From Escherichia phage HC12, in the sequence record OL362275.1: a DNA stretch of 39,342 nt; one strand, 5' to 3'. Position numbers and translations under genes: made by a program. Positions 2,847 to 38,767 of this stretch are shown piece after piece. The first letter of the stretch is position 1; the number at the start of each line of letters is the position of its first letter. Below the pieces are notes generated by a model that searched no databases, was not told where the DNA came from, and saw only the letters and a program-made list of their open reading frames with translations.

Positions 2847-2869
2847 ACTTAACTATCACTATAGGACTC
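2847..2869 (+). promoter_or_regulatory. Phage RNA polymerase promoter (ACTTAACTATCACTATAGGACTC) upstream of gene 1
   Basis: Matches the 11-copy phage promoter family (CACTATAGG core, +1 G at 2864). Confidence 0.65.
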
Positions 2870-2938
2870 AAGGTCTAAGACTCCAAGTGAAAGACCAAAG
2901 AGACTCTAAGTGAAAGACTAATAACAAGGACTTTAAGT

Positions 2939-5620
2939 ATGAGCGTCATCTCTATTGACAAGCACGACTTCTCTGATGTGTCGAACGCCATTGAGCCGTT
3001 TAACCTACTGGCTGACCACTACGGGCAAGACCTTGCAGTCAAACAGCTTCAGCTTGAGCACGAGGCATACACTGAAGGCGAGCGACGTTTCATCAAGAAC
3101 CTTGAGAGACAGACTGAGCGAGGGGAACTGGCAGACAATCAGGTCGCCAAGCCTTTGATGCAGACTCTGGTCCCTAAGATTGCGCAAGCCGTCATGGAGT
3201 GGCACGAAGGCCTAGACGGGAAGCTGTCAACCTCGCGTCCTAGTGTAGCGTTCACCATGTTGAGCACTGAAGAGAAGGCCGTAAAGGACCGCTCTATGCG
3301 CATCTCCTGTGAGTCCGCTGCGGTTATCATACTGAAGGTCATACTCTCCAAGCTGGTCAAGCCTGAAGGGATACCGATTACACCGATGGCCTCCGCGATA
3401 GGTCGCACACTTGAGGACGAAATCCGCTTCGGTCGCATCCGTGACAAGGAGAAAGAGCACTTCAAGAAGGCGATAGCTGATAACCTGAATAAGCGGACCG
3501 GGGCGTCATACAAGAAAGCCTACATGCAAGCGGTCGAGGCGTCCATGCTGGAGCAAGGCCAACTGGAAGATGCGTGGGGGACTTGGAGTCCTACAGAGGC
3601 TGTCCACGTTGGCATCAAGATGCTCGAGATTGTCATCCAGTCAACACAACTGGTCGAGCTTAAGCGGTACGGTGCTGGCAATGCAGCGGCTGATGTAGAG
3701 ATGGTCCACCTGTCAGACTTCTGGGTCAAGAAGATGGCACAACGAGGATTCAGCCTTGCGGGTATAGCTCCAGTCTACCAGCCTTGCGTCGTTCCACCTA
3801 AGCCGTGGACTGGTGTCGTAGGCGGTGGGTACTGGGCCAAAGGACGCAGACCATTACCACTGATTCGCTTAGGGTCTAAGTCTGCGGTAGCACGCTACGA
3901 AGACGTGTATATGCCTGAAGTCTATGACGCTGTGAACATCATTCAGAATACACCTTGGAAAGTGAACAAGAAGGTTCTGGAAGTGGTGAACATGGTCGAG
4001 AAGCTGAACAACACGCCTATTGATGACATCCCTCAGATGGAACCGCTGAAGCCTGAGGACTATGCGGGTGAGACTGAAGAAGAACTCAAGGCATGGAAGA
4101 AGGCTGCTGCTGGTATCTATCGCCGCGAGAAGGCCAGACAGTCACGAAGATTATCACTGAGCTTTATCGTTAACCAAGCAAACAAGTTCTCTCAGTTCAA
4201 GGCCATCTGGTTCCCGTACAACATGGATTGGCGAGGTCGTGTCTACGCTGTCCCGATGTTCAACCCTCAGGGTAACGACATGCAGAAGGGCCTCCTGACT
4301 CTGGCAGTCGGCAAGCCTATTGGTGCTGACGGTTTCAAATGGCTGAAGGTCCACGGTGCAAACTGTGCGGGTGTCGATAAAGTCACCTTCGATGAGCGCA
4401 TCAAGTGGGTGGAAGACAACCACGAAAACATCATGGCTGCTGCTAAGGCACCGATGGATAGTATTGAGTGGTGGGGCAAGTTAGACTCTCCGTTCTGTTT
4501 CCTTGCGTTCTGCTTCGAGTATGCTGGCGTAATGCACCACGGCCTGTCTTACTCTTGTTCGCTACCGATAGCGTTCGATGGGTCCTGCTCTGGGATTCAG
4601 CACTTCAGCGCGATGCTTCGTGACCACATCGGTGGACATGCAGTAAACCTGACGCCATCCGGTAAGGTCCAAGACATCTACCGCATCGTGTCTGACAGCA
4701 TTGAGGAGGAGCTTAAAGTCCTGCTGATTAACGGCACTAACAACGAGATGGTCACTCACGAGGATAAGAAAACTGGTGAGATTACCGAACGTATCAAGCT
4801 GGGGACACGAGAGCTGGCCCGTCAGTGGCTGACATACGGTATGTCACGCAAGGTCACTAAGCGTTCAGTCATGACTCTGGCATACGGGTCGAAAGAGTAC
4901 GGCTTCGCAGACCAAGTTTACGAGGACATCGTGATGCCAGCGATTGACTCAGGGTCTGGCGCTATGTTCACTGAACCAAGCCAAGCGTCTCGCTTCATGG
5001 CTAAGATGATTTGGGAAGCTGTGAGTGTGACCGTAGTTGCTGCGGTTGACGCGATGAAATGGCTTCAGGGTGCTGCCAAGCTGCTTGCTGCTGAAGTGAA
5101 GGACAAGAAGACTGGCGAAATCCTGAAGCCATGCCTTCCGGTACACTGGGTAACACCTGATGGTTTCCCTGTCTGGCAGGAATACCGCAAGAAGGATACC
5201 ACTCGTCTGAACCTGATGTTCTTAGGGTCATTCAACATTCAGCCTACCGTCAACAGAGGTACGAAGAAAGAGCTGGACAAGCACAAGCAGGAGTCAGGCA
5301 TTAGCCCTAACTTCGTCCACTCACAAGATGGTAGCCACCTGCGGAAGACTGTAGTCCACACTCACCGCAAGTATGGCGTGATGTCATTCGCAGTGATTCA
5401 CGATAGCTTCGGGACCATACCTGCTGACGCTGAGTATCTGTTCCGTGGTGTCCGTGAGACGATGGTCGAGACATACCGCGATAACGATGTGCTGCTTGAC
5501 TTCTACGAGCAGTTTGAATACCAGCTTCATGAAAGTCAGCGCGACAAGTTGCCTGAGCTTCCGAAGAAAGGTAAACTGAATATCGAAGACATCTTGTCTT
5601 CAGACTTTGCATTCGCTTAA
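2939..5620 (+). CDS. 1: DNA-directed RNA polymerase, single-subunit T7-type
   Basis: 893 aa, colinear with T7 RNAP. Conserved blocks WFPYNMDWRGRVYAV, FDGSCSGIQHFSAMLRD, HDSFGT and C-terminal DFAFA. Specificity-loop region reads RLNLMFLGSFNIQPT. Confidence 0.97.
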   Translation: MSVISIDKHDFSDVSNAIEPFNLLADHYGQDLAVKQLQLEHEAYTEGERRFIKNLERQTERGELADNQVAKPLMQTLVPKIAQAVMEWHEGLDGKLSTSRPSVAFTMLSTEEKAVKDRSMRISCESAAVIILKVILSKLVKPEGIPITPMASAIGRTLEDEIRFGRIRDKEKEHFKKAIADNLNKRTGASYKKAYMQAVEASMLEQGQLEDAWGTWSPTEAVHVGIKMLEIVIQSTQLVELKRYGAGNAAADVEMVHLSDFWVKKMAQRGFSLAGIAPVYQPCVVPPKPWTGVVGGGYWAKGRRPLPLIRLGSKSAVARYEDVYMPEVYDAVNIIQNTPWKVNKKVLEVVNMVEKLNNTPIDDIPQMEPLKPEDYAGETEEELKAWKKAAAGIYRREKARQSRRLSLSFIVNQANKFSQFKAIWFPYNMDWRGRVYAVPMFNPQGNDMQKGLLTLAVGKPIGADGFKWLKVHGANCAGVDKVTFDERIKWVEDNHENIMAAAKAPMDSIEWWGKLDSPFCFLAFCFEYAGVMHHGLSYSCSLPIAFDGSCSGIQHFSAMLRDHIGGHAVNLTPSGKVQDIYRIVSDSIEEELKVLLINGTNNEMVTHEDKKTGEITERIKLGTRELARQWLTYGMSRKVTKRSVMTLAYGSKEYGFADQVYEDIVMPAIDSGSGAMFTEPSQASRFMAKMIWEAVSVTVVAAVDAMKWLQGAAKLLAAEVKDKKTGEILKPCLPVHWVTPDGFPVWQEYRKKDTTRLNLMFLGSFNIQPTVNRGTKKELDKHKQESGISPNFVHSQDGSHLRKTVVHTHRKYGVMSFAVIHDSFGTIPADAEYLFRGVRETMVETYRDNDVLLDFYEQFEYQLHESQRDKLPELPKKGKLNIEDILSSDFAFA

Positions 5621-5635
5621 CAGGAGGAGAAGTAT

Positions 5636-5866
5636 ATGTCAATGAAACTTGTAGCACACAACAGGACATACAACGATGGGTCGGGACGTTGCCATGTAGA
5701 GCTGACTTATAAGGATTTAGTCATTCTCCGAGACAGATTACAAGCGGGTGTGACTGGATGGATTCAACCTAACGAGTACAACCTTATAGCTTCGATTGAT
5801 GAAGTGCTTAACGCGTGGATGGAAGACGAGCGCATTCAGTATCCGTCATTCCCTCTAATTAGATAA
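5636..5866 (+). CDS. Hypothetical protein
   Basis: RBS AGGAGGAG then ATG. 76 aa ORF between RNAP and the phi1.1-type promoter. Confidence 0.6.
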   Translation: MSMKLVAHNRTYNDGSGRCHVELTYKDLVILRDRLQAGVTGWIQPNEYNLIASIDEVLNAWMEDERIQYPSFPLIR

Positions 5867-5876
5867 GGAGAGAGTT

Positions 5877-6092
5877 ATGAAATTTGCACACAAGCATACT
5901 GGCGTTAATGGTGGGACTCAAATCGTGACCGTAACAGAACACAACGGCAAGGGTCTGGTGAAGACCACGGTCATCCCTACAGAGATGTCCAAGCAGCTTA
6001 ACATCCCGTTCAAGACTCTTGTATATCTGGTCGAGTCCAGCCACGAGAAGTACCTGAAGGACGCAGTGTCCAAGCTGGGGAAGGACAAATGA
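5877..6092 (+). CDS. Hypothetical protein
   Basis: RBS AAGGAGAGAG then ATG. 71 aa ORF. Confidence 0.6.
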   Translation: MKFAHKHTGVNGGTQIVTVTEHNGKGLVKTTVIPTEMSKQLNIPFKTLVYLVESSHEKYLKDAVSKLGKDK

Positions 6093-6166
6093 CAGACATA
6101 CAGTTACTGGCCCTGTGGCTGGGAGCACTCGCAGTATTCACTTTAATCCAACGCAGAAGAGGTTAA
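6089..6166 (+). CDS. Hypothetical small hydrophobic peptide (25 aa), ATGA-coupled to the preceding gene
   Basis: Hand translation MTDIQLLALWLGALAVFTLIQRRRG. Very short, no independent RBS. Confidence 0.25.
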   Translation: MTDIQLLALWLGALAVFTLIQRRRG

Positions 6167-6167
6167 C

Positions 6168-6190
6168 CCTAAACTATCACTATAGGATTA
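6168..6190 (+). promoter_or_regulatory. Phage RNA polymerase promoter (phi1.1-like)
   Basis: CCTAAACTATCACTATAGGATTA, promoter family member, +1 G at 6185. Confidence 0.7.
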
Positions 6191-6232
6191 GACTCAAGGT
6201 CATGACTCAAAGTCGTGGCCTTCATGATTAAC
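6188..6232 (+). promoter_or_regulatory. RNase III-type processing hairpin (R1.1-like)
   Basis: TTAGACTCAAGGTCATGACTCAAAGTCGTGGCCTTCATGATTAA. Same conserved element recurs at 13046 and 36348, at the positions of T7 sites R1.1, R4.7 and R18.5. Confidence 0.55.
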
Positions 6233-6263
6233 CCTAAATAAACACTACTGGAGATTTAACCGT

Positions 6264-6443
6264 ATGTATCAGAACACTATCAACTTCGAGCGCATCCGTG
6301 AACGTCAGCAGACTGAAGGTTACATCCCTAAGGGCCGCAAGCTAAACAAGACCAAGCGTGGCGGTGGTGTCAAGGGTGCTTTCCGTAACGCTGAAGGCAA
6401 AGACTCTATGGTCAACCAAGAGAAGTATTTCGTAGGAGCGTAA
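6264..6443 (+). CDS. 1.1: gp1.1-like small basic protein
   Basis: Hand-translated 59-aa ORF MYQNTINFERIRERQQTEGYIPKGRKLNKTKRGGGVKGAF...; contains GRKLNKTKR as in T7 gp1.1. Absent from the track (under 60 aa). Confidence 0.65.
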   Translation: MYQNTINFERIRERQQTEGYIPKGRKLNKTKRGGGVKGAFRNAEGKDSMVNQEKYFVGA

Positions 6444-6446
6444 GAC

Positions 6447-6698
6447 ATGAGCAGACGTTGGGTATTCGATGCGTCAACCAGCCAGTGGTCATCGTTAGGC
6501 CGGACACACCGCGAGCTGAGTGAGGCAGGACTTGAGGTCAGAATGGATGTCCTGCCGTGCTCCGGAAAGACTCTGGTCCTAATCATTGAAGCAGACGGTT
6601 GGAGGATTCTGGTATCCCGCGAATTTACCAAAGATGAAATCTTTAGCTGTGAGCAATGGTGCTTACAACAATTGAACGCTTATAGGAGCTGGAAATAA
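6447..6698 (+). CDS. 1.2: gp1.2-like protein (in T7 an inhibitor of host dGTP triphosphohydrolase)
   Basis: RBS AGGAG. 83 aa. Immediately precedes ligase as in T7. Sequence similarity to T7 gp1.2 is only loose; the call rests mainly on position. Confidence 0.6.
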   Translation: MSRRWVFDASTSQWSSLGRTHRELSEAGLEVRMDVLPCSGKTLVLIIEADGWRILVSREFTKDEIFSCEQWCLQQLNAYRSWK

Positions 6699-7771
6699 TG
6701 ACAACTATTAAAACTAACCCGCACCGCGCTGTAGATTACTCTGAGTCAGGAGTTACGAAAGCACTGGCAGCAGCCGGGTCGCTGGAAGCTGAAGTGAAGT
6801 ATGATGGTGTGCGGCTGAACCTCCCGGTCTTCCCTACTGGTGAGACACAATGGTTGAGCCGTGAGTCTAAACCTCTCCCAGCCCTTGAGTGGCTGTCAGT
6901 CCTTACCAACATCGACAACATCGTCAGGGACCAGCAAAAAGCTAGCGACTGGCGGTGGTTCCTGAAGCAGGCTGGCTACGAAGGCACTGGCCTGATGATT
7001 GACGGTGAGGTCATGGTAAAAGGAGTGGACTTCAATACGTCTTCAGGTCTAGTCCGTACCATGTGGTCAGACACTAAGAACTACGCTTGGAATGGCAACC
7101 CAGATGCTGACATCGACACCAAGAAGAAGCATAAGGTCCCTTTCCATCTGGCAACCGACTACATACGCGTGGTTGTCTACGGTATCGTGGACCTTAACGT
7201 CATCCTTGACCCGAAATCCGAAGGTCCTATTCATAGCGTCACACGCCTGAAGGCCGAAGCTATCGTCCCTCTCCTCCAGAAATACTTCCCGGAAATCGAC
7301 TGGGTTCTGTCTGAGTCACACACGGTCTATGACCTTGAGTCGCTCAACTCCCTGTACGAACAGAAGCGTCTGGAAGGACACGAGGGTCTGGTAGTCAAGG
7401 ACCCGCTTGGTAAATACAAGCGAGGCAAGAAGTCTGGCATGTGGAAAATGAAGCCTGAGGAGACCATCGACGGGACCGTGTGTGGCCTCGTGTGGGGGAC
7501 TCCGGGTAAGGCCAACGAAGGTAAGGTGATTGGCTTTGAGGTTCTGCTTGAGGATGGCATGGTGGTTAACGCCTGTGGTCTGACTGAAGAACAGAAGGAT
7601 GAGTTTACGGAAGCCTGTAACACTGATACATATATTCTCGGTGGAATCAATCCATACGAAGGCTGGCAGTGTGAAGTCCTCTTCATGGAGCGCTTCCCTG
7701 ATGGTTCCCTTCGTCACCCTAGCTTCAAGTGCTGGCGCGGGACGGAAGACAATCCAACCGTTAAGAGTTAA
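6698..7771 (+). CDS. 1.3: ATP-dependent DNA ligase
   Basis: 357 aa. Active-site KYDG (AEVKYDGVR), plus EGHEGLVVKDP and KRGKKSGMWKMKPE aligning with T7 ligase. Confidence 0.95.
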   Translation: MTTIKTNPHRAVDYSESGVTKALAAAGSLEAEVKYDGVRLNLPVFPTGETQWLSRESKPLPALEWLSVLTNIDNIVRDQQKASDWRWFLKQAGYEGTGLMIDGEVMVKGVDFNTSSGLVRTMWSDTKNYAWNGNPDADIDTKKKHKVPFHLATDYIRVVVYGIVDLNVILDPKSEGPIHSVTRLKAEAIVPLLQKYFPEIDWVLSESHTVYDLESLNSLYEQKRLEGHEGLVVKDPLGKYKRGKKSGMWKMKPEETIDGTVCGLVWGTPGKANEGKVIGFEVLLEDGMVVNACGLTEEQKDEFTEACNTDTYILGGINPYEGWQCEVLFMERFPDGSLRHPSFKCWRGTEDNPTVKS

Positions 7772-7854
7772 CTAAATGTCAACCCAGTGGTCTTCGGACT
7801 GCTGGGTTTCTTTGCTTTGTGCTAGAAAGCTATCGTCTGGGCCACCAGCATGAC

Positions 7855-7877
7855 ACTAAGCTATCACTATAGGAAAA
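7855..7877 (+). promoter_or_regulatory. Phage RNA polymerase promoter
   Basis: CACTAAGCTATCACTATAGGAAA, +1 G at 7872. Confidence 0.65.
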
Positions 7878-7903
7878 CCATAACTCGACCTAAGGAGGCC
7901 GAT

Positions 7904-8164
7904 ATGTTTAAGAACTTAATGTTCAATCGTTATACCAGTACATTCCACCTGTCTAACAACCCGTTCGCTTGCATTAAGCGCAACGAGAAGCTGGGATACT
8001 TCGGGAAGGCCGTTAAGCTGTCACCTACAGTCTATGCTCTGATTACTCACGGCAAAGCTGAAGAGGCTCGCCAGAAGCGTGATACCGACGTACCTGTGGT
8101 ATACACCAAGTGGCCTCGCGTTCGTCTGTTTATTGAGTTCGTGAAGGAGGTGATCAATGGTTAA
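7904..8164 (+). CDS. Hypothetical protein (gene 1.6 position)
   Basis: In-frame ATG with AAGGAGG RBS downstream of the promoter; the track start at 7850 lies inside the promoter. Confidence 0.6.
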   Translation: MFKNLMFNRYTSTFHLSNNPFACIKRNEKLGYFGKAVKLSPTVYALITHGKAEEARQKRDTDVPVVYTKWPRVRLFIEFVKEVING

Positions 8165-8600
8165 GGTGGGGGATACAGTTAACTATGTTGGACCAGTTGG
8201 AGCGCACGCGGGACGCTCCTGTGGCAAGGTGATATTGGTTAAGAATGAGCATGTAGCTGTTGTTAAGTGGCCCCGTTTATCTGAACCACTCACTCACTCC
8301 ATTAGTTCCTTAAGTATTACCAAGCAGGCGCAGTCCGAGCCGACAACCATAGGTCAGGAAGATAGCGTCCGTAAGCCATCTCACTATCAGGTCTTTGACG
8401 GCGTGGAGTCCATTGAGATTATCGCTCGGTCCATGACTGTCAGTGAGTTCCGTGGCTTCTGCATGGGTAACGTCCTTAAGTATCGACTCCGGGCTGGTAA
8501 GAAGTCAGAGCTGGCGACTATGGAGAAGGACCTGAACAAAGCTGCCTTTTATCAGGAGCTGTTCGACCTACATAAAGGTAAGTGCTATGCTGCCGAGTGA
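8157..8600 (+). CDS. 1.7: gp1.7-like protein (nucleotide kinase family in T7)
   Basis: C-terminal 75 aa [73 protein letters not shown] align almost residue-for-residue with the T7 gp1.7 C-terminus. N-terminal half is different and shorter than in T7. Confidence 0.8.
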   Translation: MVKVGDTVNYVGPVGAHAGRSCGKVILVKNEHVAVVKWPRLSEPLTHSISSLSITKQAQSEPTTIGQEDSVRKPSHYQVFDGVESIEIIARSMTVSEFRGFCMGNVLKYRLRAGKKSELATMEKDLNKAAFYQELFDLHKGKCYAAE

Positions 8601-8682
8601 GTGGTGCGAGCGTAAATTTGAGGAGACAGGTAACGTCGATTACCTTCAGCTCTACAACTTATGGAAGGAGCGTGGTCTATGA
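8587..8682 (+). CDS. Hypothetical small protein (31 aa; gene 1.8 position)
   Basis: Hand-translated [31 protein letters not shown]. Stop overlaps the gp2 start. Confidence 0.3.
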
Positions 8683-8837
8683 CTGACGTAGAGAAGAAAT
8701 ACATCGTTGAGCTTGAGGGTCGCGTTCAGTCCTTCGAGGTTCCGTTGTACGCAAAGTCTCTAGAAGAGGCTACCCTGAAGTCCCAAGAGTATGAGGACGC
8801 TGGTTTTGTGGTCGGACGGATTCGTCCTGAGACCTAA
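8679..8837 (+). CDS. 2: Gp2-like inhibitor of host RNA polymerase
   Basis: Hand-translated 52-aa [55 protein letters not shown]. Aligns with T7 Gp2 ([34 protein letters not shown]). Absent from the track (under 60 aa). Confidence 0.75.
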
Positions 8838-8855
8838 ACTATCACTGTAGGACAG
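8833..8855 (+). promoter_or_regulatory. Phage RNA polymerase promoter (phi2.5-like), variant CACTGTAGG core
   Basis: CTAAACTATCACTGTAGGACAGA; -3 is G instead of A. Confidence 0.6.
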
Positions 8856-8895
8856 ACGTCCAGTTAGTAACTTTTAAATTAGGAGATTTACACCG

Positions 8896-10531: not shown

Positions 10532-10979
10532 GGTACAGTTCAATCCACGGTCCCGGACCGACGCTATCTTCGTACACTGTTCGGCTACCAAGCCAGAGAT
10601 GGACATCGGGGTAGAGACCATCCGTATGTGGCACAAGCAGCAAGGCTGGCTGGACGTAGGCTACCACTTTATCATCAAGCGCGATGGCACTGTGGAAGAG
10701 GGACGCCCGGTCAATGTCGTAGGGTCACACGTTAAGGACTGGAACTCACGGTCTGTAGGCGTCTGCCTTGTAGGTGGAATTGACGCTAAGGGCAAGTTTG
10801 AAGCTAACTTCACTCCGGCCCAGATGAACTCCCTGCGCAACAAGCTGGCTGACCTGAAGGACTTGTATCCTCAGGCAGAAATCAAATCACATCATGACGT
10901 AGCACCAAAGGCGTGTCCAAGTTTCGACTTGCAACGCTGGCTGTCTACCAATGAACTGGTCACTTCCGACCGAGGCTAA
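10521..10979 (+). CDS. 3.5: N-acetylmuramoyl-L-alanine amidase (T7 lysozyme)
   Basis: 152 aa, near-colinear with T7 gp3.5: TDAIFVHCSATKP, GWLDVGYHFIIKRDGTVE, HHDVAPKACPSFDL, C-terminal ELVTSDRG. Confidence 0.95.
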   Translation: MVSKVQFNPRSRTDAIFVHCSATKPEMDIGVETIRMWHKQQGWLDVGYHFIIKRDGTVEEGRPVNVVGSHVKDWNSRSVGVCLVGGIDAKGKFEANFTPAQMNSLRNKLADLKDLYPQAEIKSHHDVAPKACPSFDLQRWLSTNELVTSDRG

Positions 10980-10997
10980 ACTATCACCGTAGGGATG
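10975..10997 (+). promoter_or_regulatory. Phage RNA polymerase promoter, variant CACCGTAGGG core
   Basis: GCTAAACTATCACCGTAGGGATG; two core substitutions relative to the consensus. Confidence 0.55.
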
Positions 10998-11042
10998 AGA
11001 CCACGAGTCTTGTCCCTTTGTTCGCATTTGAGATTAAGAAAT

Positions 11043-11121
11043 GTCTCCATAGCTCAAACGGTAGAGCGGCGGGTCGTGATGGCCTATTGCGATTAGGGTT
11101 CGAATCCCCGTGGAGACGCCA
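11043..11121 (+). tRNA. tRNA-like element (canonical acceptor, D and T arms, encoded CCA; anticodon arm non-canonical)
   Basis: GTCTCCA...TGGAGAC perfect 7-bp acceptor stem. D arm GCTC-AAACGGTA-GAGC with G18G19. T arm with GGTTCGAATCC. Discriminator G then CCA. The 26 nt between the D and T arms do not form a clean 5-bp anticodon stem; best fold gives loop GTCGTGA (anticodon CGU, Thr) with an imperfect stem. Confidence 0.45.
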
Positions 11122-17132: not shown

Positions 17133-17155
17133 ACTAAACTATCACTATAGGGACT
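17133..17155 (+). promoter_or_regulatory. Phage RNA polymerase promoter (phi6.5-like)
   Basis: CACTAAACTATCACTATAGGGAC, +1 G at 17150. Confidence 0.7.
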
Positions 17156-17216
17156 TTATGACCTAAGATATGACTATAAGATATACTTTAGTCTTAACTT
17201 AAAGAGGAGATTCAAG

Positions 17217-18407: not shown

Positions 18408-19976
18408 ATGGCTGAACGTGAAGGGTTCGCTGCTGAAGGAGCCAAAGCGGTCTATGACCGACTTAAGAACGGTAGACAGCCATATGAGACACGCGCTCAG
18501 AACTGTGCTGCTGTCACTATCCCGTCACTGTTTCCTAAGGAGTCCGACAACTCGTCTACTGAGTACACAACTCCGTGGCAAGCTGTGGGTGCTCGCTGCT
18601 TGAACAACTTGGCTGCAAAGCTGATGTTGGCATTATTCCCTCAGTCACCGTGGATGCGACTAACAGTCTCAGAATATGAGGCCAAGACCTTGAGTCAGGA
18701 CTCAGAGGCAGCTGCTCGTGTTGACGAAGGGCTGGCTATGGTCGAGCGTGTGTTGATGGCCTACATGGAGACCAACAGTTTCCGTGTGCCATTGTTCGAA
18801 GCTCTGAAGCAGCTTATCGTCTCCGGTAACTGTCTGCTTTACATTCCAGAGCCTGAACAGGGTACTTACAGTCCTATGCGAATGTACCGCTTAGTGTCCT
18901 ACGTTGTTCAACGTGATGCTTTCGGTAATATCTTGCAGATTGTAACTCTCGACAAGGTAGCGTTTAGTGCTCTACCGGAAGACGTTAAGTCACAGCTCAA
19001 CGCAGACGACTATGAGCCTGACACAGAGCTGGAAGTATATACGCACATCTACCGTCAAGACGACGAGTATCTACGTTATGAGGAAGTGGAAGGCATTGAG
19101 GTAGCAGGGACCGATGGTTCATACCCACTGACTGCATGTCCATACATCCCGGTACGAATGGTTCGACTGGATGGTGAAGACTATGGTCGTTCTTACTGCG
19201 AGGAGTATCTGGGTGACCTGAACTCGCTGGAGACGATTACAGAAGCTATCACCAAAATGGCTAAGGTAGCCTCCAAGGTGGTGGGCCTCGTTAACCCGAA
19301 CGGTATCACGCAACCTCGTCGTCTGAACAAGGCGGCTACAGGTGAGTTCGTTGCCGGTCGCGTTGAGGACATCAACTTCCTGCAACTGACTAAGGGTCAG
19401 GACTTTACGATTGCCAAGTCGGTGGCTGATGCTATCGAGCAACGTTTAGGCTGGGCCTTCCTTCTTAATAGTGCTGTTCAGCGCAACGCCGAGCGAGTCA
19501 CTGCTGAAGAGATTCGTTATGTTGCTGGCGAACTGGAGGCGACCTTAGGTGGCGTGTACTCAGTACAATCCCAAGAGCTTCAGTTACCTATCGTCCGTGT
19601 GCTGATGAACCAACTTCAGTCTGCTGGCATGATTCCTGACCTTCCGAAAGAAGCGGTAGAGCCTACTGTCTCAACTGGTCTGGAAGCTCTGGGCCGTGGT
19701 CAGGACTTGGAGAAGCTGACTCAGGCGGTTAACATGATGACTGGTCTTCAGCCGCTATCTCAGGACCCGGACATCAATTTGCCGACCCTTAAGCTGCGAC
19801 TCCTGAACGCTCTGGGTATCGACACCGCTGGCCTACTCCTGACGCAAGACGAGAAGATTCAGCGCATGGCTGAGCAGTCGTCACAACAGGCAGTTGTCCA
19901 AGGTGCTAGTGCTGCTGGTGCTAACATGGGTGCTGCTGTAGGTCAGGGAGCTGGTGAGGACATGGCTCAGGCTTAA
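18408..19976 (+). CDS. 8: Head-to-tail connector (portal) protein
   Basis: 522 aa, colinear with T7 gp8: YETRAQNCA, TPWQAVGAR, YRLVSYVVQRDAFGN, RMVRLDGEDYGRSY, VTAEEIRYVAGELE. Confidence 0.97.
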   Translation: MAEREGFAAEGAKAVYDRLKNGRQPYETRAQNCAAVTIPSLFPKESDNSSTEYTTPWQAVGARCLNNLAAKLMLALFPQSPWMRLTVSEYEAKTLSQDSEAAARVDEGLAMVERVLMAYMETNSFRVPLFEALKQLIVSGNCLLYIPEPEQGTYSPMRMYRLVSYVVQRDAFGNILQIVTLDKVAFSALPEDVKSQLNADDYEPDTELEVYTHIYRQDDEYLRYEEVEGIEVAGTDGSYPLTACPYIPVRMVRLDGEDYGRSYCEEYLGDLNSLETITEAITKMAKVASKVVGLVNPNGITQPRRLNKAATGEFVAGRVEDINFLQLTKGQDFTIAKSVADAIEQRLGWAFLLNSAVQRNAERVTAEEIRYVAGELEATLGGVYSVQSQELQLPIVRVLMNQLQSAGMIPDLPKEAVEPTVSTGLEALGRGQDLEKLTQAVNMMTGLQPLSQDPDINLPTLKLRLLNALGIDTAGLLLTQDEKIQRMAEQSSQQAVVQGASAAGANMGAAVGQGAGEDMAQA

Positions 19977-19993
19977 CTATCACTATAGGAACA
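19971..19993 (+). promoter_or_regulatory. Phage RNA polymerase promoter (phi9-like)
   Basis: GCTTAACTATCACTATAGGAACA, overlapping the portal stop. Confidence 0.7.
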
Positions 19994-21005: not shown

Positions 21006-21028
21006 ACTAAACTATCACTATAGGGAGA
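21006..21028 (+). promoter_or_regulatory. Phage RNA polymerase promoter (phi10-like), full consensus ending GGGAGA
   Basis: ACTAAACTATCACTATAGGGAGA, best copy of the family, upstream of the major capsid gene. Confidence 0.8.
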
Positions 21029-21130: not shown

Positions 21131-22180
21131 ATGGCAAACGTTCCGGGTCAGAAAGTTGGTACAGACCAAGGTAAAGGCAAATCTGGTTCCGACGCTCTGG
21201 CGTTGTTCCTGAAGGTCTTTGCTGGCGAAGTCCTGACAGCATTCACTCGCCGCTCTGTAACTGCTGACAAGCATATTGTCCGTACCATTCAGAACGGTAA
21301 GTCTGCTCAGTTCCCGGTCATGGGTCGCACCTCTGGTGTGTATCTGGCTCCGGGTGAGCGACTGTCCGATAAGCGTAAAGGTATCAAACATACCGAGAAA
21401 GTGATTACCATTGATGGTCTGCTGACTGCCGATGTGATGATTTTCGACATTGAAGACGCGATGAACCACTATGACGTGGCTGGCGAGTACTCCAACCAGT
21501 TGGGCGAAGCTCTGGCTATCGCTGCCGATGGTGCGGTACTGGCTGAGATGGCTATTCTGTGTAACCTACCGGCTGCATCTGATGAAAACATCGCTGGTCT
21601 TGGCAAAGCGTCTGTGCTGGAAGTTGGTACTAAAGCAGACCTGAACACTCCGGCTAAGCTGGGTGAAGCAATCATCGGTCAACTGACCATTGCTCGTGCG
21701 AAGCTGACATCCAACTACGTTCCTGCTGGCGACCGTTACTTCTACACCACGCCGGACAACTACTCTGCAATCCTCGCGGCTCTGATGCCGAACGCTGCTA
21801 ACTATGCTGCGCTGATTGACCCAGAGACTGGTAACATCCGTAACGTAATGGGCTTCGTGGTTGTTGAAGTCCCACACTTGACTCAGGGTGGTGCTGGGGA
21901 AACTCGTGGTGCCGATGGTATCACTATTGCGACTGGTCAGAAGCACGCCTTCCCAGCTACTGCTACTGGTGATGTTAAAGTTGCTCTGGACAACGTTGTG
22001 GGCCTGTTCTCTCACCGTTCTGCTGTAGGTACTGTTAAGCTGCGTGACTTGGCGCTGGAACGTGACCGTGACGTCGATGCTCAGGGCGACCTGATTGTTG
22101 GTAAGTACGCTATGGGTCACGGTGGTCTGCGTCCAGAAGCAGCAGGCGCACTGGTTTTCAGCCCAGCAGCAGCGGGTTAA
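21131..22180 (+). CDS. 10A: Major capsid protein
   Basis: 349 aa, colinear with T7 gp10A: LALFLKVFAGEVLTAF, HTEKVITIDGLLTADV, MPNAANYAALIDPE, KLRDLALER, AMGHGGLRPEAAG. Confidence 0.97.
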   Translation: MANVPGQKVGTDQGKGKSGSDALALFLKVFAGEVLTAFTRRSVTADKHIVRTIQNGKSAQFPVMGRTSGVYLAPGERLSDKRKGIKHTEKVITIDGLLTADVMIFDIEDAMNHYDVAGEYSNQLGEALAIAADGAVLAEMAILCNLPAASDENIAGLGKASVLEVGTKADLNTPAKLGEAIIGQLTIARAKLTSNYVPAGDRYFYTTPDNYSAILAALMPNAANYAALIDPETGNIRNVMGFVVVEVPHLTQGGAGETRGADGITIATGQKHAFPATATGDVKVALDNVVGLFSHRSAVGTVKLRDLALERDRDVDAQGDLIVGKYAMGHGGLRPEAAGALVFSPAAAG

Positions 22181-22446: not shown

Positions 22447-22487
22447 AAACCCCTTGGGTGCCTTCGGGTGCTTGAGGGGTTTTTTGC
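22447..22487 (+). terminator. Tphi-like intrinsic terminator
   Basis: AACCCCTTGGGTGCC-TTCG-GGTGCTTGAGGGGTT followed by TTTTTTG; close to the T7 Tphi terminator sequence. Confidence 0.85.
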
Positions 22488-22504
22488 TTAAAGTGAGGAT
22501 GATT

Positions 22505-25787: not shown

Positions 25788-25810
25788 CCTTAACTATCAC
25801 TATAGGGACT
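25788..25810 (+). promoter_or_regulatory. Phage RNA polymerase promoter (phi13-like) flanked by a 12-bp inverted repeat
   Basis: CCTTAACTATCACTATAGGGACT. AAGGGCCTATAG at 25771-25782 is the exact reverse complement of CTATAGGCCCTT at 25809-25820. Confidence 0.7.
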
Positions 25811-25839
25811 ATAGGCCCTTAAGGTTATAAGGAGACTTT

Positions 25840-32600: not shown

Positions 32601-33500
32601 CGTAAGTTCGATGACCGCTGGCTGAAGACCGCTGGTATCTCTGACGAGCAGTGGAAGGGCATTAAGTCCCTAATCCGTGAGTCAGTGACTCGTGGTCCAG
32701 ACGGGAAGTACACCATCAAGGATAAGAAGGCGTTCAGTCAGGACCCAAGGGCTATGGACCTCTGGCGTATGGGTGACACCATCGCTGATGAGACCCTGCT
32801 CCGTCCCCACAAGCTGAGCAACATGGACGCCAAGGCTTATGGTCCGATAGCGAAGACTGTCTTGCAGTTTAAGAACTTCGTTATCAAGTCTATCAACGGT
32901 CGAACCATGCGTACCTTCTACAATGCCACCAAGAACAACCGAGCTATGGACGCTGCGCTGTCAACGGTTATGTCTATGGGTCTGGCTGGAATGTACTACA
33001 TGGCTCAGGCGCACATAAAGGCTTACGCTATGCAGGACGGGCGTGACCAAGAGTATCTGAAGCAAGCCCTTAACCCAACAATGATTGGCTATGCGGCGCT
33101 GTCCCGTAGCTCCCACTTAGGTGGTCCTCTTGGGGTCGCCAACATTCTGGGTGGAATCGCTGGGTATGAGGACACTAAGATGCTCCGCTCGTCAATCCTT
33201 CCGCGCTCACCTACCGAGAAGACGGAGAAGCCAATCGCCTTTGGTGCTGCTTCCAGTGGTCCGGTAATGAATGTGGTCGGCAACTTCCTTGAGCAGGTCC
33301 CGGCTTTCGGCTATGCTGCTAACGTTGGTGCTACGGCTTACAACTTGGCGGGATACCTCAAGGCTGATACCCGTGTCAACGAGCGAGACTACATGACCGG
33401 GATGTATAACACGTTCCGTGAACTTGTACCGAATGACCCGATTACCCAGAAGTTGCTGCTTGGAACGTTTGAGGAGCAGGGCATCCACATCAAGGACTAA
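29613..33500 (+). CDS. 16: Internal virion protein D (ejection protein), N-terminal domain unlike the T7 transglycosylase domain
   Basis: 1295 aa. From about residue 230 colinear with T7 gp16 (TRWN..W..EEL..IRN, SPTGMQSGASGK, YGISHTEQFE, NSFLEARNLFDSD, FFAKNAYMG, DPTMIGYAALSRSS, KELVPNDP). N-terminal 130 aa (NSNPGNLRK...RWAPPSENDT) is different. Confidence 0.93.
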   Translation: MATRGVRNSNPGNLRKSKDQWEGAIGDDGEFVIFDSPESGVRALAKNLQSYGRQGYDSIEKIINRWAPPSENDTKSYIDSVVAATGIPATQSLDLSDPDTLSSLAQAISFHETGSRYDPEVYQKGVARALNGISPKTPPVSANVFDALTEGLKAKPKVALGENLPTAAGLNIEGQAPESPNESFGEMFYKSTGETMKEREDRSTWFGFGEATKAEVKNSMIGVAIRAGQTEDSLDVIGDVFNPTRWNNHKWSREELDQIRNAGVLPQYYGVITGGSPQNLTELINLALENQKLDQEKAKAGTGAQLAAGVIGAGVDPLTYVPIAGQVGKGGKLVNKMFTVAAQSGALAGVSEMARTSVAGGDAHVAEAILGGALFGGGMTAIADGLGRALGRNTNEFAGPATRLEARETARNTDGQDLSRLPIQDGEQTFSHQGVKFANVPNEPGSVRLEDGSILIGENPLNPKTRKVFDEVIEPERAAAGVNLGGLTEIGLKLLRSENPEIRGVAADLVRSPTGMQSGASGKIGTTASDVFERLRAVDHRFYNDIDEAVTEALKDPYFQTAFWRDSGAFRQDIYQRVSMAIEDGSGNLKAELTPGELKVYDLLKNQFDAKREMMENPAMFGRPDAQSIFPGSRFKGTYVPHVYSNQMKKLYIKELGSPEALQEAIKKSWLTSYASRPEVKKRVDEALLEADPTLTPEGLAAAVDKYANDKAYGISHTEQFERSSVMEENINGLVGLENNSFLEARNLFDSDMSIVLPNGQTFSVNNLREWDMDKIVPAYNRRVNGDIAIMAGTGKTTKDMKDLVETLMNKAGDDGKLKGEVSTLRDTLKILTGRARRDGADDAAFATVMRTMTDLSFFAKNAYMGVQNLTEIGGMLARGNVRAMLHGVPIFRDLAFRNKKVGASEIKDLHNVIFGKELDDSIRPSKQDVIDRLRSYSDLGRGTATALGTAKYYTGELAVRSPFTKVLNGTTNYLLDAGRQGFLSDIVEHSLTGSKRKFDDRWLKTAGISDEQWKGIKSLIRESVTRGPDGKYTIKDKKAFSQDPRAMDLWRMGDTIADETLLRPHKLSNMDAKAYGPIAKTVLQFKNFVIKSINGRTMRTFYNATKNNRAMDAALSTVMSMGLAGMYYMAQAHIKAYAMQDGRDQEYLKQALNPTMIGYAALSRSSHLGGPLGVANILGGIAGYEDTKMLRSSILPRSPTEKTEKPIAFGAASSGPVMNVVGNFLEQVPAFGYAANVGATAYNLAGYLKADTRVNERDYMTGMYNTFRELVPNDPITQKLLLGTFEEQGIHIKD

Positions 33501-33518
33501 ACTATCACTATAGGAAAC
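33496..33518 (+). promoter_or_regulatory. Phage RNA polymerase promoter (phi17-like)
   Basis: ACTAAACTATCACTATAGGAAAC, overlapping the gene 16 stop. Confidence 0.7.
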
Positions 33519-33564
33519 TGGAGGCGCTACCATAGGTCTCCGTTTAAATCACAAAGGAGGCATA

Positions 33565-35745
33565 ATGTCCACGATTACACAATTCCCTTCAGGAAACACT
33601 CAGTACAGGATAGAGTTCGACTACCTAGCCAGAACGTTTGTTGTTGTTACGCTGGTGAATAGCTCTAACCCTACCCTGAACCGTGTACTGGAAGTTGGTA
33701 GAGATTACCGATTCCTTAATCCAACGATGATTGAGATGTTGGCTGACCAATCAGGTTTCGACATCGTTCGTATTCACCGTCAGACTGGAACTGACTTAGT
33801 GGTAGACTTCAGGAATGGCTCAGTGTTGACGGCTAGTGACCTGACCAATTCAGAGCTTCAGGCTATCCATATTGCAGAAGAAGGTCGAGACCAAACGGTT
33901 GACTTAGCGAAGGAATATGCCGATGCTGCTGGTAGCTCTGCTGGCAACGCTAAGGATAGCGAGGACGAAGCACGACGAATGGCGGCGAGTATCAAGGAAT
34001 TTGGTAAAATTGGCTATATTACCCGTCGCTCCTTCGAGAAAGGCTTCAACGTTACAACATGGAACGAGGTCCTGCTATGGGAAGAGGATGGTGCTTATTA
34101 CCGCTGGGATGGTACGCTTCCAAAGAACGTTCCCGCTGGTTCAACTCCTGAATCATCTGGTGGTATTGGGCTGAGTGCGTGGGTTAGTGTTGGTGATGCG
34201 TCACTTAGAGCAAACCTGTCTGATAGTGATGGCGCTAAATACATAGGCAGTGGAGAAAGGACATTACTTGAGCACAACAATGATGTTTTGCACTCAAAAG
34301 ACTTCCCAACACTGCAGGCAGCTATAGATGCATCTTTGCAAAAAAATGATCTACTGGTGTCTCCTGGAAATTATACTGAAAAAGTTACTATTGGAAACGC
34401 GCAGTTAAAAGGTGTTGGCGGGGCCACGGTACTAAAAACTCCGGCAGACTTTACAAACACTGTTCAGGTTAATTTAGCTACACCTAATTGGCAATTCCGC
34501 CATAGTGGTGGTTTTGCTATAGATGGTTCCGGGACAACCGGGGCCGTAGGTATTAGTTTTGACCCGTCAGACCAATATTCCGGACGTCATAATTTTAGTG
34601 ATGTATACATCCACAACATCAACAAGGCCATTCAGAAGCCTTCCGGGAACATCGGCAATACTTGGAGAAATATTGGGATATCTACGTGTGATTGGGGGTA
34701 TTACGCGATTAGTGGCTCAGAGATGCATTGCGGGGCCGATACCCTCTACAATATCCACTTCGATGGCATCTCCACCTATGCAGTCTATCTAGACGGCACT
34801 GTCGATAATGGCGGGGTGGGCGCATGGTGGCTTAAAGACTCCATTATTGAGGCTTCCGGAGGTGGCGGGATATACTTAAAAAGTAAATCGGGCGACTGTC
34901 CTACATCTCCATGCGGGGTATCCAATATATGGATGGAAGCGATCGCAACATCACCGGCTGTTCAGGTAGACGGCGTGGCGCAAAAACCGCGAGTTCTCAA
35001 GTTGGTAGACACAGCGATATTCTTTGCTGAGTATTCTTATCTCAACAACATCGAGCTATCCAACTCCAACTTAGTAACTTATGGTTGCCGTTTTGACAAC
35101 GCTGATGGTAATCAGGATATTGTCGTGGATGCACAAAGTACCATTGTAGCCCATGACGTGTATTTAAACGGCAGTTCTGGAAAGGACGTTATTGTGGAGT
35201 CCGTCGCATCGCAATCTGCAACTATAGCTACCACAAACTTATCTCTGAGGGGCAACTTAACAAGAGGGAGAGTATTTAATACGCCGACAGGGAATAAATT
35301 AATGGCTATCACATTTGACTCAGGTAGCCATAAGTTTTCTGGCAGCGGCACCGTTAACGGTTCGACTGTATCTGACGGACTTCACGCCGCTACATGTACC
35401 GAATTTTCATTCCCCGGAGCCGGTTTATATGAAATGGTAGCGACAAGAACAACCATTACATCCGGTAGATGGTACGTGTGGGGAGTTAACTCACGCCTAC
35501 AATCTGGCTCGGCGGATATTAGTATAACGTCAGGTATTACCATGGGTAGTGTTTACACAAAGCCGGGGGAGTGGATTAGCACTTTCGGTGTAGGAAAGGC
35601 ATCTACCACTGGCACTGTAGCGCTATACGTTTCCACAGGAGGAGGTTCGGGAGCTACGGTCAGATTCAGTGACTTTTTCATCGCTGAGTTTACGACGCAA
35701 GCTCAGGCTTTAGCTTTCGCCAATTCAAGGATGTCGTTATCATAA
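33565..35745 (+). CDS. 17: Tail fibre / tailspike: conserved T7-type N-terminal adapter, divergent C-terminal receptor-binding domain
   Basis: N-terminal 150 aa (FDYLARTFVVVTL, DYRF, LVVDFRNGSVLTASDL, IHIAEEGRD) align with T7 gp17. Remainder unrelated to T7, Gly/Ser/Thr/Asn-rich with repetitive beta-strand-like segments. DNA becomes AT-rich from about 34200. Confidence 0.9.
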   Translation: MSTITQFPSGNTQYRIEFDYLARTFVVVTLVNSSNPTLNRVLEVGRDYRFLNPTMIEMLADQSGFDIVRIHRQTGTDLVVDFRNGSVLTASDLTNSELQAIHIAEEGRDQTVDLAKEYADAAGSSAGNAKDSEDEARRMAASIKEFGKIGYITRRSFEKGFNVTTWNEVLLWEEDGAYYRWDGTLPKNVPAGSTPESSGGIGLSAWVSVGDASLRANLSDSDGAKYIGSGERTLLEHNNDVLHSKDFPTLQAAIDASLQKNDLLVSPGNYTEKVTIGNAQLKGVGGATVLKTPADFTNTVQVNLATPNWQFRHSGGFAIDGSGTTGAVGISFDPSDQYSGRHNFSDVYIHNINKAIQKPSGNIGNTWRNIGISTCDWGYYAISGSEMHCGADTLYNIHFDGISTYAVYLDGTVDNGGVGAWWLKDSIIEASGGGGIYLKSKSGDCPTSPCGVSNIWMEAIATSPAVQVDGVAQKPRVLKLVDTAIFFAEYSYLNNIELSNSNLVTYGCRFDNADGNQDIVVDAQSTIVAHDVYLNGSSGKDVIVESVASQSATIATTNLSLRGNLTRGRVFNTPTGNKLMAITFDSGSHKFSGSGTVNGSTVSDGLHAATCTEFSFPGAGLYEMVATRTTITSGRWYVWGVNSRLQSGSADISITSGITMGSVYTKPGEWISTFGVGKASTTGTVALYVSTGGGSGATVRFSDFFIAEFTTQAQALAFANSRMSLS

Positions 35746-35889
35746 AAACAACCTCAGCCGAATCGGGTTATTTATCATCAGAACGGTATTGAATAATCGA
35801 AGGTTGTGGAGGTAGAGGATAACTACACGTTGACCAACGTATGATAACAACTTTGGGTCACGGACGACCCGCTTTAAACTGGAGGTTTT

Positions 35890-36084
35890 ATGATTGAGTT
35901 AGACTTCAAGAATGAGGTCCTCAAAGCCTCGCCTATCGTCGGGACCGCTGCGGCTGATGGTGCCAGTCGGTTCTTCTTTGGGCTAACGCTCAACGAATGG
36001 TTCTACGTCGCTGCTATCGCGTACACCGTGGTGCAGATTGGCGTCCTAATTTACAAGACGATTAAGAGCGGAGGTAAGACATGA
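35890..36084 (+). CDS. 17.5: Holin (class II)
   Basis: 64 aa, near-colinear with T7 gp17.5: LDFKNEVLKASPIVGTAAADGASRFFFGLTLNEWFYVAAIAYTVVQIG. Confidence 0.9.
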   Translation: MIELDFKNEVLKASPIVGTAAADGASRFFFGLTLNEWFYVAAIAYTVVQIGVLIYKTIKSGGKT

Positions 36085-36344
36085 CGCAGATGGACTTAGA
36101 GAAGTTCCTGTTAATGCTGGACACAGAACGTGCTAGACTAATGCTGCAAGACCTGCGGGATGACTCTAAGCGTTCGCCCCAGCTCTACAACGCCATTGAG
36201 AAACTGCTTGCTCGACACAACTTTGTGTTAAGCAAGGTGTCTGTGGACGAGAAGACGCTGGCGGATATGGAGGCCTTGAACGCAGAGTACGATAAGGTGC
36301 TTTCAGCTACTGAGGATAATGACACCGGGTATGGTGTTCAATAA
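36081..36344 (+). CDS. 18: Terminase small subunit
   Basis: 87 aa; FLLMLDTERARLMLQDLRDDSKRSPQLYNAIEKLLARH aligns with T7 gp18. Confidence 0.9.
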   Translation: MTQMDLEKFLLMLDTERARLMLQDLRDDSKRSPQLYNAIEKLLARHNFVLSKVSVDEKTLADMEALNAEYDKVLSATEDNDTGYGVQ

Positions 36345-36347
36345 GTG

Positions 36348-36390
36348 TTAGACTCAAGGTCATCGTCAGGTGGCCTTTATGGTTAACACT
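36348..36390 (+). promoter_or_regulatory. RNase III-type processing hairpin (R18.5-like)
   Basis: GTTAGACTCAAGGTCATCGTCAGGTGGCCTTTATGGTTAAC, third copy of the conserved element, at the position of T7 R18.5. Confidence 0.55.
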
Positions 36391-36440
36391 GACTAGTGGA
36401 GGCGACTCTACGTTAAATCTGATAAACCGGGAGGGCAACT

Positions 36441-36890
36441 ATGCTCGAATTTTTAAAGAGAGCGGCTCCGTGGTTACTTGCAGCAGTGATGTTTGCTGGT
36501 GGCTACCACACCGCTAACAATAAGTGGGAGGCTAAGGTCAATGCAGAATACACCTCGAATCTTAAGGCATCGGAAGATACAAGGCTTGCTGTCCAAGCTG
36601 AAGTCAACAAAGTGTCCAAACGGTTTCAGGACGAAATGTCCTCGCTGGAAGGCAGCACTGATAGGATTATTGCTGACCTTCAGTCTGACAATAAGCGGTT
36701 GCGCATCCGAGTCAAACCAACGAGTGGAACCACGCAAAGTGACGGTCGATGCTTCATTGATGGTTACGCCGAACTTGACGAACGAGATGCTAAACGTCTT
36801 ATCGCCATCGGAGTGAAAGGAGACAAGTGGATTAAGGCCCTTCAAGACACTGTGAGAGCCTTACAGCAAGAGAAGGAGGTGACGCATTGA
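36441..36890 (+). CDS. 18.5: Rz-like i-spanin
   Basis: 149 aa, N-terminal TM segment; MLEFL..., [53 protein letters not shown] align with T7 gp18.5. Confidence 0.9.
36541..36816 (+). CDS. 18.7: Rz1-like o-spanin lipoprotein embedded in the +1 frame of Rz
   Basis: Embedded +1-frame ORF with hydrophobic stretch [13 protein letters not shown] followed by lipobox ISGC. ATG 36541 has a GGAGG RBS but gives a 53-residue pre-Cys leader; true start uncertain. Confidence 0.5.
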   Translation: MQNTPRILRHRKIQGLLSKLKSTKCPNGFRTKCPRWKAALIGLLLTFSLTISGCASESNQRVEPRKVTVDASLMVTPNLTNEMLNVLSPSE

Positions 36891-38650
36891 GTAAAGACTT
36901 AGTGGCGCGTCAGGCGCTAATGACTGCACGTATGAAGTCAGACTTCGTGTTCTTCCTGTTCGTCCTGTGGAAAGCTCTGTCGCTCCCAGTCCCGACTCGC
37001 TGTCAGATTGACATGGCGAAGAAACTATCGGCTGGGGACAACAGGCGCTTCATCCTACAGGCGTTCCGTGGTATAGGGAAGTCCTTCATTACGTGTGCCT
37101 TCGTTGTCTGGAAGCTATGGAACAACCCAGACTTGAAGTTCATGATTGTGTCGGCCTCAAAGGAGCGAGCCGATGCTAACTCCATCTTCATCAAGCGAAT
37201 CATCGACCTCATGCCTCAGCTTCAGGAACTCAAACCTAAGCAGGGACAGCGAGATGCGGTTATTAGCTTCGACGTGGGACCTGCCAAGCCAGACCACTCA
37301 CCTTCGGTTAAGTCCGTTGGTATCACTGGTCAGTTGACTGGTAGTCGTGCTGACATCCTGATTGCCGATGACGTGGAGGTTCCGAACAACTCAGCGACTC
37401 AGGCTGCACGAGACCGTCTATCAGAGCTTGTGAAAGAGTTCGACGCTATCCTGAAGCCGGGAGGTACGATCATCTATCTGGGTACTCCTCAGAACGAGAT
37501 GACCCTGTACCGTGAGCTGGAAGGTCGTGGGTACACCACTACTATCTGGCCCGCTCGTTATCCACGCGACAGGAAGGACTGGCAGTCTTACGGCGACCGT
37601 CTGGCTCCTATGCTTCAGGAAGAGCTGGAAGAGGACCCTGAGTCCTTCTACTGGCGTCCGACTGATGAAGTACGCTTCGATGATACGGACCTGAAGGAAC
37701 GTGAGCTGTCCTACGGTAAAGCTGGCTTCGCTCTACAGTTCATGCTTAACCCGAACCTGAGTGATGCCGAGAAGTACCCTCTTAAGCTCCGTGACCTTAT
37801 CGTAGCCGACTTGGACCCAGCGTCCAGCCCAATGGTCTACCAATGGTTGCCGAACCCTCAGAACAAGCGTGAGGACGTTCCTAACGTTGGACTCATGGGT
37901 GACTCGTACCACACGTATCAGACTGTAGGTTCTGCCTTCAGCTCATACACCCAGAAGATTCTGGTCATTGACCCTAGTGGTCGTGGTAAGGATGAGACTG
38001 GTTATGCGGTACTGTACCAGCTCAACGGCTACATCTTCGCTATGGAAGTTGGTGGTATGCGTGGTGGGTATGAAGACTCTACGCTGGAAGCACTGGCTAA
38101 GATTGGCCGTAAGTGGAAGGTCAACGAATACGTCATTGAGGGTAACTTCGGTGATGGTATGTACCTTGAGCTATTCAAGCCTGTAGCGGCCCGTATACAT
38201 CCTGCTGCTGTAACTGAAGTGAAGAGTAAGGGTCAGAAAGAACTCCGCATCTGTGACGTTCTGGAGCCTATCATGGGGTCTCACCGACTTATCATCAACG
38301 CTGCTGCTATCGTCCAAGACTACCAGTCGGCCTCTGATAAGGATGGTGTTCGTAACCCTATCTACTCTCTCTTCTACCAGATGACACGTATCTCTCGTGA
38401 ACGTGGAGCCTTGGCACACGATGACCGACTTGATGCGCTGGCTATCGGTGTACAGTTCTTCGTTGAGTCTATGGCTAAGGATGCCAACAAAGGCGAACGT
38501 GAAGTCACTGAGGAGTGGCTGGAGGAACAGATGGAGAACCCACGAAAAGGCTTCGAGTCCATCCACACTGAGTTCTGGGACAATGGGGTCCGGGTAACTC
38601 ACGATACGGACGACGAGCTGGGACTAGGGTCATACGTTACGTTCCACTAG
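36887..38650 (+). CDS. 19: Terminase large subunit
   Basis: 587 aa, colinear with T7 gp19: [109 protein letters not shown] start with AAGGAGGT RBS. Confidence 0.97.
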
Positions 38651-38744
38651 CTGAATGAATAACTATAGGCGAAAACTGAGTTAATAAGCAGTTAGTAACC
38701 TATAGTTACTACCAGTCTAACCTACTGTTTTACAAGGAGTTTGG

Positions 38745-38767
38745 ACTTAACTATCACTATAGGGAAG
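38745..38767 (+). promoter_or_regulatory. Phage RNA polymerase promoter near the right end (phiOR-like)
   Basis: ACTTAACTATCACTATAGGGAAG, +1 G at 38762. Followed by AT-rich sequence with CTATAG-containing repeats. Confidence 0.7.

Follow-up and report, generated by a model that had tools for sequence, protein, structure and literature searches.

The K1F-type pair of RNA polymerase (RNAP) and promoter, one of the specificities described among T7-like phages, is already known from GenBank annotation in 2008, from experiments in 2012 and 2014 and from a systematic analysis in 2025. Here it is compared with the polymerase of Escherichia phage HC12 (OL362275.1) and with a family of eleven promoter-like repeats in the same genome; the window analyzed is the whole stretch of 39,342 nucleotides (nt). 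In T7 RNAP, N748 contacts the promoter bases at -10/-11, R756 the base pair at -9 and Q758 the base at -8 (PMC5937735). Temme et al. (2012; PMC3458549) replaced T7 residues Q744-I761 by the K1F hairpin and promoter positions -12 to -7 by the K1F consensus. On a K1F-type promoter the resulting T7(K1F) chimera showed 17-fold induction, and it was orthogonal to the T7, T3 and N4 pairs (PMC3458549). The graft corresponds to 754S, 756N and 761V, with ACTAT as the cognate promoter segment (Table 2 of PMC11880802). A direct-coupling analysis of natural RNAP-promoter pairs (2025) linked residue 748 with -11/-10, 756 with -10/-9 and 757/758 with -8, and K1F is one of its nine specificity clusters (PMC11880802). 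Synthetic biology has employed the K1F loop since 2012 as an orthogonal part for transcription.

Judged by its sequence, the window is the complete genome of a Kayfunavirus (K1F/EcoDS1 group, T7-like, Studiervirinae, Autographiviridae). Many Kayfunavirus records, including EcoDS1, ST31, YZ1 and LM33_P1 relatives, match a 6-kb query at 91-97% identity, and the left-end sequence is identical to EcoDS1 and K1F. The eleven repeats are very probably (about 95%) promoters for HC12's own RNAP, with loop and promoters both belonging to the K1F specificity class. An earlier interpretation of the window, here called the sequence-only reading, had proposed an eleven-copy promoter family with a distinct specificity region, matched by a change in the specificity loop of the polymerase. 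This interpretation is supported as right, is not new and is incomplete.

All eleven proposed sites are present, and all of them lie on the + strand. For their identification, the 21-mer consensus of the sequence-only reading, ACTAAACTATCACTATAGGGA, was searched with up to three mismatches, and 100 dinucleotide-preserving shuffles served as the null. Ten sites were recovered in this way (all promoters of Table 1 except that at 8833), where 0.00 are expected. The site at 8833, CCTAAACTATCACTGTAGGAC, has four mismatches to the consensus and was confirmed by direct reading and by a search with the core. A weight matrix was then built from the 11 sites and both strands of the genome were scanned. 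The 11 sites score 30.7-41.0 and no twelfth site was found in this both-strand scan, the next best position being 17162 with 13.5-15.1, so that the sites (at least 30.7) are cleanly separated from everything else (at most 15.1). Because the next-best score lies far below those of the true sites, the list of eleven is complete. The promoters are intergenic or located at gene ends, each with its +1 32-185 nt upstream of an open reading frame preceded by a Shine-Dalgarno sequence and in the same direction as the genes.

With +1 set at the first G of GG, the numbering used in the sequence-only reading is right, and positions -12 to -8 read ACTAT, as it had stated, versus CGACT in T7. This holds for ten sites; the phi1.6 promoter at 7855 reads GCTAT, and its G at -12, which falls in the specificity region and was not mentioned before, is common to HC12, K1F and EcoDS1. 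The T7-type core from -7 to +2, CACTATAGG, is exact in nine sites and carries one or two substitutions in the remaining two, which are those already named: G at -3 at 8833, and C at -4 together with G at -3 at 10975. Positions -16, -15, -13, -11 to -5 and -2 to +2 each carry about 2 bits of information. The segment from -17 to -13 reads ACT(A/T)A, with TAATA in T7, and its C at -16 and T at -15 are invariant where T7 has A and A. The proposed start GGGA stands as the form of the late promoters, not as the majority form, since six sites have A at +3 and the other five have G.

The same promoter set is found in annotated relatives. The GenBank record of EcoDS1 (EU734172, 2008) annotates eleven "phi" promoters, namely upstream of gene 1, before 1.1, 1.6, 2.5, before 4, 6.5, 9, before 10, 13, 17 and OR. 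The HC12 sites correspond to them one-for-one (11 of 11, no extras) and are mostly base-identical. The weight matrix of the HC12 sites recovers the same eleven promoters in K1F (NC_007456). The promoter ahead of gene 1 is identical to the annotated EcoDS1 promoter at 2244-2266 and to that at 2474 in K1F.

The HC12 RNAP is 98% identical to the gene 1 proteins of K1F and EcoDS1 and 64% identical to that of T7. The loop peptide RLNLMFLGSFNIQPT of the sequence-only reading is present in the polymerase. Both the HMMER alignment to T7 RNAP and the MAFFT alignment agree with its claim that N748 and Q758 are kept and that R756 is replaced by Asn; R746 is kept as well, and the further changes are Q754S, L757I and I761V. 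In terms of residues, the HC12 specificity loop is the known K1F loop plus the conservative exchange L757I. The residue at the T7-L757 equivalent is Ile767 (codon 5237-5239), where K1F, EcoDS1, Milel, LNA3 and BHUENT8 have Leu. No exact match to the 59-residue loop stretch of HC12 was found among 50,697 deposited phage genomes, and Ile767 looks private to HC12. Erwinia L1 and phiPsa17, which both have T at -8, likewise carry Ile at the T7-757 equivalent, and thus no change of specificity is expected from L757I. The AT-rich recognition loop differs from T7 too: it is two residues longer and is followed by an 11-residue insertion.

For comparison of specificity loops across phages, we paired the residues at T7 positions 748/756/758 with the promoter bases from -12 to -8 in a small panel. 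HC12, K1F, EcoDS1 and BHUENT8 combine N/N/Q with ACTAT. Enterobacter phage EcpYZU01, a Kayfunavirus whose RNAP is 85% identical to that of HC12, and phiPsa17 combine D/R/Q with ACCCT. The remaining pairs are N/R/Q with CGACT in T7, N/R/Q with AGACT in Erwinia L1, D/R/A with ACCCA in Vibrio ICP3 and K/N/F with GGTAG in IL33 (Przondovirus). Across the panel, Arg756 is paired with C at -9 without exception, and Asn756 is paired with T-10/A-9 in two separate lineages, Kayfunavirus and IL33. Together with the published K1F graft and the coupling of 756 to -10/-9, this pairing supports the suggestion that R756N is consistent with a recognition change at -9/-10.

According to the mechanism that we propose, the polymerase would bind the promoter duplex from -17 to -5. 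Its specificity loop, a beta-hairpin, would read the major groove from -12 to -7, and its AT-rich recognition loop would read the minor groove from -17 to -13. The TATA segment would then be melted and transcription initiated at G +1. Q754S, R756N and I761V, together with L757I, would redirect recognition at -12 to -8 from CGACT to ACTAT, and transcription in HC12 would therefore be insulated from T7- and T3-type promoters. Near-consensus promoters (phi6.5, phi10, phi13 and phiOR) would serve the late genes, and the deviant, presumably weaker ones (phi1.1, phi1.6, phi2.5 and phi4) the DNA-metabolism genes. Sequence, positions, synteny, loop residues and covariation are observations of this study, activity and orthogonality are taken from the literature on the K1F loop in the T7 backbone, and we infer how Asn766 makes its atomic contacts, how the promoters rank in strength and that each +1 is used in HC12.

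Some points weigh against this explanation. The evidence for activity comes from a T7 backbone with the K1F loop, which is weak in some contexts, and a split "sigma fragment" version of the K1F-loop polymerase required the extra exchange M750R (Segall-Shapiro et al., 2014; PMC4299498). The HC12 loop departs from the tested K1F loop by L757I. Moreover, R756N alone cannot explain the changes at -12, -11 and -10, because N748 remains although the bases that it contacts in T7, G-11/A-10, become C-11/T-10. Four of the five bases from -12 to -8 differ from T7, with one of four contact residues changed, and the contacts of N748 would have to be rearranged in the HC12 polymerase. Specificity very likely rests on more than R756N. 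A second candidate determinant, given by the differences in the AT-rich loop and at -17 to -13, was overlooked in the sequence-only reading.

The same facts could be taken to mean that Asn756 is a mere passenger, the switch being due to S754, V761 or I757, to the altered AT-rich loop or to residues not in the loop. The functional graft holds three substitutions and not one (PMC11880802), N748 is unchanged though -11/-10 differ, and -16/-15 as well as the AT-rich loop depart from T7. However, 748, 756 and 758 are the dominant determinants in the coupling analysis, and swapping just those three was active in seven of nine clusters (PMC11880802). The strict pairing of Arg756 with C-9, and of Asn756 with T-10/A-9 in Kayfunavirus and IL33, points in the same direction, as does the contact of R756 with the -9 base pair in T7 (PMC5937735). 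A passenger role is unlikely.

The two promoters with core substitutions, at 8833 and 10975, had been called probably weaker, and a lower strength than that of the consensus promoters is plausible, because the class II promoters of T7 vary in the same segment. While T7 class III promoters are invariant, those of class II (phi1.5, 1.6, 2.5, 3.8, 4c and 4.3) vary in the segment from -3 to -1, with cores such as CACTAAA and CACTATT. T7 class II promoters are functional despite this core variation. Since the substitutions at -3 and -4 hit the melting segment, the two sites might be decayed copies without function and not weak promoters, but this is very improbable. In T7 these places are taken by phi2.5 and phi3.8, and the genes that follow, 2.5 and 4, are essential. 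The phi2.5 variant is identical over all 23 bases in HC12, K1F and EcoDS1. The gene-4 promoter has C at -4 in all three genomes, with G at -3 in HC12 and T in the other two, where the homologous core reads CACCTTAGG. EcpYZU01 and BHUENT8 have CACTGTAGG and CACTTTAGG variants as well. As the variant bases are conserved in relatives, both sites are more likely maintained weak promoters than relics.

That the eleven repeats are another signal, such as an RNA processing site or a replication or packaging element, has practically no likelihood and was rejected, as nothing specific speaks for it apart from a separate repeated motif, ACTCAAGGTC, near some sites, and the repeats contain the T7 core, show strict strand polarity, lie between genes and ahead of them, coexist with a cognate T7-family polymerase in the same genome, are annotated as promoters by specialists at the homologous EcoDS1 sites and have the K1F-type sequence with demonstrated promoter activity (PMC3458549). 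The coordinates of the promoters for HC12's own polymerase are collected together with the polymerase features and terminators in Table 1.

Table 1. Polymerase gene, recognition loops, promoters (-17 to +6) and terminators in HC12.
Feature	Position	Strand	Remarks
Promoter upstream of gene 1	2847..2869	+	+1 at 2864; gene 1 (RNAP gene) begins 75 nt downstream
Gene 1, single-subunit RNA polymerase, 893 amino acids	2939..5620	+	E=0, full-length to T7 RNAP structures 1ARO/1CEZ
AT-rich recognition loop equivalent (T7 93-101)	3215..3247	+	KAKRGKRPT in T7, DGKLSTSRPSV in HC12
Specificity loop (T7 739-770 equivalent)	5183..5278	+	YRKKDTTRLNLMFLGSFNIQPTVNRGTKKELD; Asn at T7-756 equivalent is codon 5234-5236
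phi1.1-type promoter	6168..6190	+	+1 at 6185; homologous to annotated EcoDS1 6034-6056
TE-like early terminator, hairpin and T-run	7781..7818	+	between ligase gene 1.3 and phi1.6; EcoDS1 TE map position
phi1.6 promoter	7855..7877	+	+1 at 7872; G at -12
phi2.5 promoter	8833..8855	+	+1 at 8850; core reads CACTGTAGG, with G at -3
Promoter upstream of gene 4 (phi4)	10975..10997	+	+1 at 10992; core CACCGTAGG (C at -4, G at -3)
phi6.5 promoter	17133..17155	+	+1 at 17150; exact consensus
phi9 promoter	19971..19993	+	+1 at 19988
phi10 promoter (major capsid gene)	21006..21028	+	+1 at 21023; exact consensus, GGGAGA start
Candidate Tphi terminator after capsid gene	22461..22488	+	map position of annotated EcoDS1 terminator 22122-22157
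phi13 promoter	25788..25810	+	+1 at 25805
phi17 promoter	33496..33518	+	+1 at 33513
phiOR promoter	38745..38767	+	+1 at 38762

The first promoter of the list is located directly ahead of the polymerase's own gene, so that positive autoregulation would be possible. Within the genus this promoter is kept in K1F and EcoDS1 (annotated in the latter), in EcpYZU01 (locus position 19906) and in Milel (locus position about 110). No phage promoter is annotated upstream of gene 1 in the records of T7, T3 and K11; phiPsa17 annotates a putative one. Two separate ideas, both of low probability, are that Ile767 could tune promoter affinity or strength, because residue 757 is reportedly coupled to the -8 base, and that the gene-1 promoter could give the Kayfunavirus polymerase positive feedback.

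The motif ACTCAAGGTC has 23 matches with at most one mismatch in HC12, where 3.3 are expected. It is found at 2866, 6192, 13050 and 36352 (+) and at other positions, and the exact + strand copies are intergenic. These exact copies lie at the map positions of the T7/T3 RNase III sites R1, R1.1, R4.7 and R18.5. The motif recurs in repeats of Erwinia L1 and Vibrio ICP3. An RNase III-type hairpin was not supported in the gene-1 leader (2864-2938), as folding of this segment alone gave no advantage over shuffled sequence (z = 0.28).

Two of the late promoters have further features. The phi13 core is partly tandem-duplicated (CACTATAGGGACTATAGG) at 25798-25815 (+), and its start, GGGACTAT, is identical in K1F and EcoDS1. 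Downstream of phi6.5, at a distance of 29 nt, a degenerate promoter-like sequence, CCTAAGATATGACTATAAGATATAC, is located at 17162-17186 (+). It is conserved in K1F (17206) and EcoDS1 (17021), and EcpYZU01 has a similar sequence, ATATATGACTATAGG, after its phi6.5 equivalent, though its promoters are of the ACCCT type. Because a similar sequence is kept in this ACCCT-type genome, the phage polymerase probably does not use the 17162 site as a promoter.

Between the gene-4 promoter and gene 4 (11136), a transfer RNA (tRNA)-like element is located at 11043-11121 (+). It scores 36.7 bits with the Rfam tRNA model (gathering score 29), and ARAGORN calls it tRNA-Thr(cgt), 79 nt long, and places the anticodon at position 33. 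It has canonical acceptor, D and T arms, and an anticodon-arm region of 21 nt instead of 17. The element is present in BHUENT8 and absent from K1F, EcoDS1, EcpYZU01, T7, T3 and K11. At least 80% of the 151-nt gene-4 leader is matched by 34 deposited phage records, a few of which annotate "tRNA-Thr", "tRNA-OTHER" or "tRNA-Pseudo" there. Its position is that of the T3 RNase III site R3.8, and because T3 has this site at the same place, the element may serve as a signal for processing and not for decoding as a tRNA.

HC12 adds one more member with the conservative L757I to the K1F class, which matters little beyond correct annotation. It is closest to K1F and EcoDS1, which share all eleven promoters and their map positions, including the variant phi2.5 and phi4, and have a 98% identical RNAP, the same AT-rich loop and, except for one residue, the same specificity loop. 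It differs from them by Ile instead of Leu at T7-757, by Arg instead of Lys four residues past the hairpin and by the tRNA-like insert in the phi4 leader, which K1F and EcoDS1 lack. The engineered T7(K1F)/PK1F pair has the same hairpin class (754S/756N/761V) and the same ACTAT at -12 to -8. In contrast to HC12, however, it consists of a T7 backbone and a T7 promoter in which only the hairpin and positions -12 to -7 were exchanged, whereas in HC12 the whole enzyme, the AT-rich loop and positions -17 to -13 are native and of the K1F type.

T7 itself (Teseptimavirus) has an enzyme of the same family, the same core from -7 to +2, and R746, N748 and Q758 in common with HC12. The promoter map is similar, with phi1.6, 2.5, 6.5, 9, 10, 13, 17 and OR shared. 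Differences are found at R756, Q754 and I761 of the polymerase and in the promoter segments CGACT (-12 to -8) and TAATA (-17 to -13); furthermore, T7 has 17 promoters, including phiOL, and none directly upstream of gene 1. The Przondovirus phages K11 and IL33 share Asn at T7-756, and the IL33 promoters share T-10/A-9 with HC12. They differ by K748, by K or F at 758, by GGTAG at -12 to -8 in IL33 and by a large insertion after the AT-rich loop. The T3-type phages (T3, phiPsa17 and EcpYZU01) belong to the same family and have the same core, and A-12 and C-11 are shared with the K1F type. Here D748/R756 is combined with ACCCT (for T3 taken from PMC11880802), in contrast to N748/N756 with ACTAT in the K1F type. 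In EcpYZU01, a polymerase with such a T3-type loop (D748, R756 and T754) is accompanied by promoters that read AACCCTCACTATAGG, and Kayfunavirus therefore includes specificities of both the K1F and the T3 type. This contrast inside one genus is useful, as it makes Kayfunavirus a compact natural series for the co-evolution of polymerase and promoter.

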